A stretch of 12,799 nucleotides of DNA from a virus, in UHGV virus genome UHGV-1846250; one strand, given 5' to 3'. Of the stretch, positions 1 through 1,362 are shown one piece after another (the first letter of the stretch is position 1; each line of letters opens with the position of its first letter). Made by a program: the position numbers and the translations under genes. Under the pieces are notes generated by a model. The model saw nothing but the letters and a program-made list of their open reading frames with translations. It was not told the DNA's origin and ran no database searches.

Positions 1-26
1 GAGCTTATTATCCTACTATGCGTGTG

Positions 27-115
27 ATTGCATTAAATTGCATGTTAAACAAAAGCATAATCTATATCAGTCAATCAGCCAGTGGCAAGGTGTTGTGATT
101 ACAATGCAACTGCAT
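27..115. repeat. Cluster of TGCAT-containing motifs: direct repeat ATTGCAT at 27-33 and 37-43, inverted pair ATGCA-ac-TGCAT at 104-115
   Basis: Read directly from the sequence; the two ATTGCAT copies are 10 bp apart (one helical turn) and lie in an AT-rich segment immediately left of cos. Confidence 0.3.
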
Positions 116-139
116 TAGAACCGACTCATGAAGCGGGCG

Positions 140-158
140 GGCGAGGCGGGGAAAGCAC
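140..158. other. cos: cos site: 19-nt cohesive-end sequence of P2/P4-type phages
   Basis: Exact string GGCGAGGCGGGGAAAGCAC at 140-158, which I recall as the P2/P4 19-nt 5' cohesive end; it sits about 170 bp from the end of the portal gene, as at the left end of P2. Confidence 0.6.
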
Positions 159-198
159 TGCGCGCTGGCGGTGGTGCTGATTTTATTTTTTCAGCGTC

Positions 199-287
199 TG
201 AGCGCGTCGTGAAGGCGCTTAGTCTGCCCGTTGAGGCGTTGGTGTGTCTGCGGGGTGTTTTGTGCGGTGGTGAGCGTGTGAGGGCGT
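199..287. repeat. Four copies of a TGAG(G)CG(C)GT-like motif (199-207 TGAGCGCGT, 232-239 TGAGGCGT, 271-278 TGAGCGTG, 279-287 TGAGGGCGT) in a G+T-skewed tract between cos and gene Q
   Basis: Read directly from the sequence; non-coding position between cos and the Q terminator makes a cosB-like terminase-binding role plausible. Confidence 0.3.
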
Positions 288-300
288 GATGACGGGGTGT

Positions 301-322
301 AAAAAAGCCGCCCGCAGGCGGC
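301..322 (-). terminator. Rho-independent terminator of the leftward P-Q packaging operon
   Basis: On the minus strand, just after the Q stop (328-330): GCCGCC-UGCG-GGCGGC perfect 6-bp GC stem with 4-nt loop (plus 307-322) followed by six U (plus 301-306 AAAAAA). Confidence 0.7.
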
Positions 323-327
323 GATGT

Positions 328-1362
328 TCAGCCGTTGTCAGTGTCCAGTGAGTAGTTTTTAAAGCGGATGACCTCCTGACCGAGCCAGCCGTTTATCTCG
401 CGGATCCTGTCCTGTAACGGGATAAGCTCATTGCGGACAAAGACCTTTGCCACTTTCTCAATATCACCCAGCGACCCGACGTTCTCCGGCTTGCCGCCCA
501 TCAACTGAAAGGGGATGCGGTGTGCGTCCAGCAGGTCAGCGGCGCTGGCTTTTTTGATATTAAAAAAATCGTCCTTCGTTGCCACTTCACTGAGCGGGAT
601 AATTTTAATGCCGTCAGCTTTCCCCTGCGGGGCATAGAGAAACAGGTTTTTAAAGTTGTTGCGGCCTTTCGACTTCACCATGTTTTCGCGAAGCATTTCG
701 ATATCGTTGCGATCCTGCACGGCATCGGTGACGTACATGATATATCCGGCATGAGCGCCGTTTTCGTAATACTTGCGGCGGAACAGCGTGGCCGACTCAT
801 TCAGCCAGGCAGAGTTAAGGGCGCTGAGATATTCCGGCAGGCCGTACAGCTCCTGATTAATATCCGGCTCCAGCAGGTGAAACACGGAGCCGGGCGCGAA
901 GGCTGTCGGCTCGTTGAAGGACGGCACCCACCAGTAAACATCCTCTTCCACACCACGGCGGGTATATTTTGCCGGTGAGGTTTCCAGTCTGATGACCTTA
1001 CCGGTGGTGCTGTAACGCTTTTCCAGAAACGCATTACCGAACACCAGAAAATCCAGCACAAAGCGGCTGAAATCCTGCTGGGAAAGCCACGGATGCGGGA
1101 TAAATGTCGAGGCCAGAATATTACGTTTGACGTAAATCGGTGAGCTGTGATGCACGGCAGCACGCAGGCTTTTTGCCAGACCGGTAAAGCTGACCGGTGG
1201 CTCATACCATCTGCCGTTACTGATGCACTCGACGTAATCCAGAATGTCACGGCGGTCGAGTACCGGCACCGGTTCGCCAAAGGTGAATGCCTCCATTTTC
1301 GGGGCGCTGGCGGTCATTTTTTTTGCCGCAGGTTGCGGTGTTTTCCCTTTTTTCTTGCTCAT
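328..1362 (-). CDS. Q: Portal protein (P2 gpQ-like), 344 aa
   Basis: ATG-initiated ORF of 344 aa, the same length as P2 gpQ as I recall it, with a recognisably P2 Q-like sequence; start shares one nucleotide with the stop of the upstream terminase gene (TGATG on minus strand). Confidence 0.93.
   Translation of the reverse strand: MSKKKGKTPQPAAKKMTASAPKMEAFTFGEPVPVLDRRDILDYVECISNGRWYEPPVSFTGLAKSLRAAVHHSSPIYVKRNILASTFIPHPWLSQQDFSRFVLDFLVFGNAFLEKRYSTTGKVIRLETSPAKYTRRGVEEDVYWWVPSFNEPTAFAPGSVFHLLEPDINQELYGLPEYLSALNSAWLNESATLFRRKYYENGAHAGYIMYVTDAVQDRNDIEMLRENMVKSKGRNNFKNLFLYAPQGKADGIKIIPLSEVATKDDFFNIKKASAADLLDAHRIPFQLMGGKPENVGSLGDIEKVAKVFVRNELIPLQDRIREINGWLGQEVIRFKNYSLDTDNG

Follow-up and report, generated by a model that had tools for sequence, protein, structure and literature searches.

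The stretch of DNA considered here, 12,799 nucleotides of the virus genome UHGV-1846250 and referred to throughout as the window, has the open reading frame layout of a P2-like (Peduovirus) phage, with which the annotations of the closest public genomes agree. Portal gene Q, assigned from the ORF list and related-genome annotations, occupies 328-1362 on the minus strand, and after Q and the terminase gene P, also on the minus strand, comes a long plus-strand cluster annotated in related records as structural and lysis genes. A terminator scan placed a rho-independent terminator of the P-Q late operon at 307-322 on the minus strand, and P2 annotates tQ at the equivalent place. No Rfam family matched window 1-400 at E <= 1.

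The phage cohesive end lies between Q and the left edge of the window. The 19 nucleotides at 140-158 on the plus strand are an exact match to P2 cosL (GGCGAGGCGGGGAAAGCAC), which occurs once in the window with 0 occurrences expected from 200 shuffles, and the nick thus falls between 139 and 140. The P2 record annotates cosL at its own positions 1-19, and the linear record of phage P24B2 ends at the window equivalent of 139 and starts at that of 140, which is the physical end of the packaged DNA. The 55-bp P2/P4 cos core of Ziermann and Calendar (1990), as that work is cited in PMC5694545 and PMC9594776, corresponds exactly to window 104-158; the right 36 bp of the core, at 104-139, contain ATGCA (104-108) and TGCAT (111-115). 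For comparison across the group, 160 P2-like loci were gathered by portal protein (one genome per species together with IMG/VR), anchored ungapped on the cohesive end and dereplicated to 115 flank types. Across these, information content over 104-158 is mostly 1-2 bits per position, and the window matches the consensus.

Several observations on cos itself are recorded in passing. Window 118 is G in the window and in all records identical to it over 1-139, and A in 99% of the 115 flank types, so that the core reads TTAGAACC here versus TTAAAACC; G118 must be tolerated, since P24B2 is a viable phage. The left end of the P24B2 record (L006, 1-19) reads GGCGAGGCGG--AAAGCAC, two G short of the canonical cohesive end, and this deficit is probably an assembly artefact. 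On the Q-proximal side of cos (window 159-200) strong conservation extends about 30-50 bp past the cohesive end, and a weak terminator-like hairpin at 162-177, followed by a T-run (TGATTTTATTTTTT), is found on the plus strand; it may stop rightward transcription into Q, or may belong to cos.

The DNA to the left of the nick, window 1-139, had been singled out in the original prediction for the low GC of its first ~120 bp (35-40% by eye). Computation bears this out, with GC of 36.0% in 1-100, 35.8% in 1-120 and 40.3% in 1-139, where the window as a whole has 56.6%, and with 1-120 being the lowest-GC stretch of 120 bp among the 12,680 tested (mean 56.7%, sd 4.8). The accompanying claim that the shift in composition coincides with cos holds for the cos core and not for the nick: the shift falls at about 104-120, where the conserved 55-bp core has its left edge, rather than at 139/140, and GC is 35.9% in 1-103 and 52.8% in 104-139.

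What lies beyond the left edge was inferred from six records identical to the window over 1-139, as the window itself shows only the cos-Q side. These zero-mismatch matches are the E. coli prophages in CP059907, CP141736 and CP027550, the isolated phage Peduovirus P24B2, and two IMG/VR contigs. For most P2-like phages, and for over 2,000 E. coli genomes, BLAST homology to the window begins only at about 103-105 and runs rightward. Annotation and profile searching of the leftward DNA in the identical relatives revealed cargo, with PADLOC and Pfam matches, between replication gene A and cos-Q. In the prophages and P24B2 the order left of cos is gene A, a Dcm methylase (plus strand), a MAE_28990-type HEPN protein (minus strand), a DUF262/GmrSD_N protein (minus strand) and cos, and both IMG/VR contigs, found by exact 60-mer, also carry the DUF262 cassette. 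The DUF262 ATG is formed by the three bases directly left of window base 1 in the three E. coli prophages and P24B2, and in three genomes the annotated minus-strand coding sequence WP_021560113.1 (DUF262) has its first base immediately to the left of window 1. The body of any system does therefore lie outside the window, as had been anticipated, since all three genes are left of base 1 in the relatives.

The gpA-gpQ position next to cos is a documented defence hotspot of P2, occupied in P2 by old and tin (PMC9122126, PMC9519451). Ten loci encoding an identical 590-aa terminase carry at least 7 different cargo sets, or none, and in all ten the match to the window breaks at 104. Cargo GC is 40% for dcm, 32% for the HEPN gene and 38% for the DUF262 gene, versus 53% for gpA and Q, and the leader at 36% GC is continuous with the AT-rich cargo genes (32-40%). 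From the start of dcm to the nick (3.04 kb) the four carriers are 99.93-99.97% identical while their flanking backbones are 97.4-98.2% identical, and from this excess it follows that cargo and cos arm moved recently as one unit. Near-identity among the carriers extends to about window 211, and the right-hand recombination junction of the cassette can be placed to window ~104-212, an interval whose conservation in all P2-like phages prevents finer placement. The suggestion that 1-139 is the edge of the variable right-end region of P2 is accordingly partly right: a cargo cassette does lie just to the left, in the gpA-gpQ hotspot, but 17-139 is itself a length-constrained cos arm, as described below. 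Among the other loci, the hotspot of prophages L183 and L184 seems to be empty, about 1 kb separating gene A from Q, and their arm is of the canonical GC-rich kind, its dyad intact. Flank types having no ORF within 450 nt of the nick show a mean spacer GC of 58%, and the dyad is present in 73% of them; AT-rich spacers such as that of the window look like derived, cargo-linked states.

Pfam matches to the three cargo proteins, all above gathering thresholds, were GmrSD_N (4.7e-28), HEPN_MAE_28990 (8.5e-18) and DNA_methylase (1.8e-54). In PADLOC, the DUF262 protein matched NsnA at 4.9e-55, over 41-377 of 385 profile positions, and PD-T4-2_A at 9.2e-35; the HEPN protein had no PADLOC match at E <= 0.01, PD-T4-2_B included, and no NCBIfam match at E <= 0.001. 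Canonical Menshen consists of NsnA (a ParB-DUF262 sensor), the transducer NsnB and the inPIN-nuclease effector NsnC (PMC12065111). The DUF262 protein resembles its first component, but NsnB and NsnC are not among the cassette neighbours, which are the HEPN_MAE_28990 protein and the Dcm methylase, and the cassette is therefore not canonical Menshen. Nor is it a complete PD-T4-2, since only the A component was matched and the partner protein showed no B match. A closer likeness is found in the neighbourhoods of MAE_28990 HEPN, ParB-like nuclease and DNA methylase listed in Table 1 of Anantharaman et al. 2013 (PMC3710099), all three families being present and adjacent here. The trio is described as a predicted restriction-like defence cassette, a role assigned, for genes outside the window, from their domains and by comparison with these systems.

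The same trio occupies the same place in an E. coli version ~69% identical at the DNA level (L173/L174). A third and more diverged trio of GmrSD_N, HEPN_MAE_28990 and C5-methylase is found in the same hotspot in L176 (Q on the plus strand), with a different arm spacer and a start codon 46 nt further from Q; from this diverged version it follows that P2-like phages acquired the trio, or saw it diversify, on more than one occasion. It was also observed that a poly-G tract in dcm (L001 9774-9780) varies among carriers: CP059907 and CP141736 have G7, which leaves the gene in frame, CP027550 has G6 and a frameshift annotation, and P24B2 has G8 and a gene split in its annotation, with the DUF262 and HEPN genes intact despite these variants. 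The cause is either sequencing error in the homopolymer or phase variation of the methylase. Were the variation real, the nucleases would be tolerated in the absence of the methylase, a point against a classical restriction-modification relationship.

Within the window, plus-strand frame 2 is open from base 2, at the window edge, to a TAG at 116-118, a run of 38 codons ending in ...SISQWQGVVITMQLH*, just as originally reported. Such a run is not, as had been supposed, unusual for AT-rich DNA. At least 38 codons were open from the edge in 20% of mononucleotide shuffles and in 29% of first-order Markov resamples of 1-139, and some 38-codon open run in any of the six frames was present in 55% of resampled sequences; with 20-29% of shuffles giving one, the open frame is no evidence of coding. 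The further proposal that frame 2 is the 3' tail of a cargo gene lying upstream and cut by the window edge had in its favour these 38 open codons, but their chance probability is 0.2-0.29, and the frame was followed upstream in the six exact-match records, where it reaches a stop 59-61 bases left of the window (positions -61 to -59; loci L001-L003 are among them). This is so in all relatives identical over 1-139, and the gene-end reading was rejected on the ground that frame 2 closes just upstream of the window, the outcome which the original prediction had itself named as speaking against it. The total open frame in L001-L003 is 58 codons, or 39 from the first ATG, and the DNA left of the window in the relatives, where the stop lies, is the antisense of the minus-strand 381-aa DUF262 coding sequence, a gene with strong Pfam and PADLOC matches. 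In addition, in-frame stops break frame 2 in all diverged DUF262-linked arms (L039, L061, L173 and L176), and its last 13 bases, stop codon included, fall inside the conserved cos core. A truncated cargo gene is thus almost certainly not what frame 2 represents. The same near-certainty attaches to dismissing a real small gene of 39 codons, running from an ATG at -1 to +2 to the TAG at 116-118 and divergent from the DUF262 gene. An ATG is indeed present at that spot in relatives, but the frame is conserved in no diverged arm, the plus strand is without a promoter-like site in the scan described below, transcription would need to start inside the DUF262 coding sequence, and the gene would cross the TGCAT boxes and enter the cos core. 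Frame 2 is a chance open frame. The idea that the rare G118 creates its stop was considered and ruled out, other flank types having TAA there.

The break in BLAST homology at 103-105 was for a time taken as the cargo boundary, a view dropped after the cos-anchored comparison revealed boxes at fixed positions further left. In this comparison the register with cos is kept ungapped out to about -120 (relative to the nick) in 115 flank types from many genera, and information content rises above the background further left (0.04 +/- 0.035 bits, maximum 0.14) at three copies of TGCAT on the plus strand. Box I (TTGCATG, 38-44, with TGCAT at 39-43) has 0.6-1.1 bits and box II (29-33) has 0.8-1.1 bits; box III (19-23) is degenerate in the window (TGCGT), and its region, about 16-23, reaches about 0.1-0.3 bits, blurred by +/-2 nt. 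Box I is exact in 75% of the 115 flank types and within one mismatch in 97%, box II in 76% and 96%, and box III, when sought within 2 nt of its position, in 55% and 84%, compared with 0-1% and 3-10% at control positions. The spacing from box III to II to I is 10-11 bp, about one helical turn. Counted together, TGCAT and ATGCA number 4.63 per 139 nt of arm versus 0.41-0.46 in flanking controls.

Between the boxes and the core, a second conserved region at 75-93 has 0.4-0.8 bits at most positions and contains, at 78-86, the sequence GCCA-G-TGGC, a remnant of a GC-rich dyad that canonical P2/P4 cos arms carry. In 30% of flank types a dyad with arms of 5 bp or more is present, versus 13-18% of controls (p = 0.009), and the centres of these dyads cluster at the window equivalent of 80; the case for the dyad is weaker than that for the boxes. 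Gene content respects the same interval. Whichever way they point, coding sequences leave about 120-145 nt before the nick free, plus-strand stops piling up 123-143 nt from it and credible minus-strand starts beginning at 119-144 nt, and the DUF262 ATG, 139 nt away, is near the limit of this approach.

The AT-rich segment probably also holds the promoter and leader of the leftward cargo gene that starts one base outside the window. A sigma-70-like scan of window 1-400 returned a sole site, TTGCCA-18-TAGATT on the minus strand, with the predicted -35 at 83-88 and the predicted -10 at 59-64 separated by an 18-nt spacer; its score is a modest 9/12, and 0.3 such sites are expected by chance. The motif TTGCnA plus TA(A/G)AT(T/C) recurs at the same positions and spacing in four diverged DUF262-linked arms (the window, the ~69%-identical E. 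coli version L173/L174, Kluyvera L039 and Buttiauxella L061), among which neighbouring bases vary and GCAAGG (85-90) is invariant; the L173/L174 -10 is without the terminal T. Proximal to the gene, the minus-strand 5' leader at 1-16 (...CGCCATgagcttattatcct... at L001 11998-12014) contains a Shine-Dalgarno-like AGGA at 14-11, 10 nt before the ATG, that may be the ribosome-binding site. tQ isolates the cargo from late transcription, and a lysogen needs a separate cassette promoter since the late P-Q operon ends at tQ. Across the flank types at large, leftward cargo is weakly associated with lower spacer GC (p = 0.024) and shows no significant association with promoter-like sites or with the dyad.

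Comparison with better-known phages places these features in context. The right end of P2 (NC_001895) is alike in that a leftward, nonessential anti-phage operon, old-tin, is the last before cos, in that its leftward transcript starts between the old ATG and cos (mapped in P2, predicted here), and in that it shares the 55-bp core and has TGCAT boxes at 17, 29 and 39 in window register. The differences are in the cargo, which is the OLD ATPase-nuclease and Tin there and DUF262, HEPN and Dcm here; in the distance of the first ATG from the nick, 194 nt for old and 139 nt for DUF262; and in the promoter, as the P2 transcript starts (window-equivalent -9/-11) and -35 are found at the left margin of the arm, where box III is, whereas the promoter predicted here would be internal to the arm, in the interval from box I to the core. 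The psu-cos interval of satellite P4 is built in this register too, with the 55-bp core, a GC dyad near 80 and TGCAT boxes at 16, 29 and 39, but the P4 arm adjoins the conserved psu rather than cargo, the P4 hotspot being on the opposite side of cos, and its spacer is GC-rich with an intact dyad and without a cargo promoter. Box III accordingly lies at 17-21 in P2 and 16-20 in P4, and the register of box II is unchanged across P2, P4, P4-like satellites and Ralstonia phage RSA1. The boxes are kept by 72 P4-like satellites, some with a Psu only 62-64% identical, and in these satellites the dyad sequence changes while a dyad remains. In RSA1 (L267) the TGCAT boxes are at -129, -110 and -100 from the nick, against -122, -110 and -100 in P2.

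More distant relatives have triple repeats of their own at the same place, GCAGAAA in phiCTX (L266) and CACGGAAA in HP1 (L268), and the phiCTX record annotates repeats R4-R6 across cos. The lineage-specific triple repeats of phiCTX, HP1 and RSA1 were observed within about 150 bp of the right end. Such a distribution suggests that repeats at the right end co-evolve with the terminase as recognition elements. The R-sites of lambda cosB, together with cosQ, offer a parallel, in that short repeats lie within about 120 bp of the nicking site and exist in lineage-specific versions in related phages (here TGCAT, GCAGAAA and CACGGAAA), but there is no sequence similarity to lambda, and binding by gpM, the small terminase, is putative here.

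Two other accounts of this segment were weighed against a packaging role. Under one, the TGCAT boxes would be operators through which a phage or host regulator controls hotspot cargo promoters, as might be suspected from the overlap of box III with the P2 old promoter -35 (TTGAAT, read from the transcript starts and sequence) and from the position of the window boxes within the predicted 5' leader. The boxes are nevertheless present with either cargo direction and in empty hotspots, their conserved distance is to the nick and not to any gene, and different repeats take the same place in distant lineages; moreover, P4 and its relatives keep them although the arm there is next to psu and the hotspot is across cos, which speaks against the boxes being cargo regulators, and operators are judged unlikely. 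More improbable still is that 1-103 is plain foreign cargo DNA without phage function and with its junction at 103/104. BLAST homology to other P2-like phages does begin at 103-105, the GC of 1-103 resembles that of the cargo genes, and the segment travels with the cassette, yet a foreign origin sits poorly with the ungapped cos register to about -120, with boxes at 0.8-1.1 bits against 0.04, and with the avoidance of the last ~120 bp before the nick by coding sequences. The arm is, furthermore, AT-rich in general (43.5 +/- 6.7% GC over 106 flank types, the window being ninth lowest), even with different cargo.

The boxes and dyad are most likely recognition elements for the P2 terminase, with a role comparable to that of lambda cosB/cosQ, as judged from their placement and conservation. 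P4 is without homology to P2 beyond cos. It is packaged by the P2 terminase (Ziermann and Calendar, as cited in PMC9122126), and lengthening the cos flanks of cosmids improved their transduction by P2 by as much as about 5x10^4-fold (PMC9594776). The accessible P2/P4 literature, in which Ziermann and Calendar (1990) is represented through citing papers, cites only the 55-bp core and offers no motif-level account of an extended cos. The specific proposal that the boxes (19-44) and the dyad near 80 constitute a terminase-recognition array extending the functional P2/P4 cos about 120 bp left of the nick is put forward tentatively, as a possibility held at clearly less than even confidence. In the favoured reading of the whole segment, 104-139 supplies the right part of the 55-bp core carrying the nick, and the three helically phased boxes in 17-44 and the dyad remnant near 80, all at fixed distances from the nick, most likely serve recognition by terminase. 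The poorly constrained AT-rich spacer (45-103) and the left end (1-16) would serve the adjacent cargo: a sigma-70-type promoter (-35 at 88-83, -10 at 64-59) would fire leftward from a start placed at about position 52, and the transcript would pass through the boxes and the AGGA at 14-11 into the DUF262 (ParB/GmrSD_N, NsnA-like) gene and on to the MAE_28990-type HEPN gene, with the convergent Dcm methylase beyond, following the layout seen in relatives.

In summary, there is good reason to regard window 1-139 as the non-coding right terminus of a P2-like chromosome, in which the right arm of cos is combined with the probable leader and promoter of leftward cargo and frame 2 is open by chance. 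The segment is a further example of an already known arrangement at a known hotspot. The finding as originally made carries little weight, the hotspot being well documented, the cargo lying outside the window and the suspected gene end not being real. The most interesting by-product, a modest bonus, is the fixed-register TGCAT architecture common to P2, P4 and RSA1. Judged by the BLAST breakpoint at 103/104, the constant region looks shorter than it is: conserved architecture free of cargo coding sequence reaches about 120 bp to the left of the nick, and it is at that distance that automated mining of defence islands in P2-like prophages should set the hotspot boundary. The map of boxes and dyad in P2, P4 and RSA1 provides a concrete hypothesis for the terminase recognition site, and points to a rational minimal cos cassette for P2/P4 transducing particles. 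If the recognition array is real, it would explain the poor packaging of short cos cassettes in P2/P4 cosmid vectors, and it would form a hard boundary that hotspot cargo cannot cross. Leftward cargo promoters would then be forced inside the packaging signal, where transcription of the defence genes could be silenced by, or run into, terminase bound late in infection.
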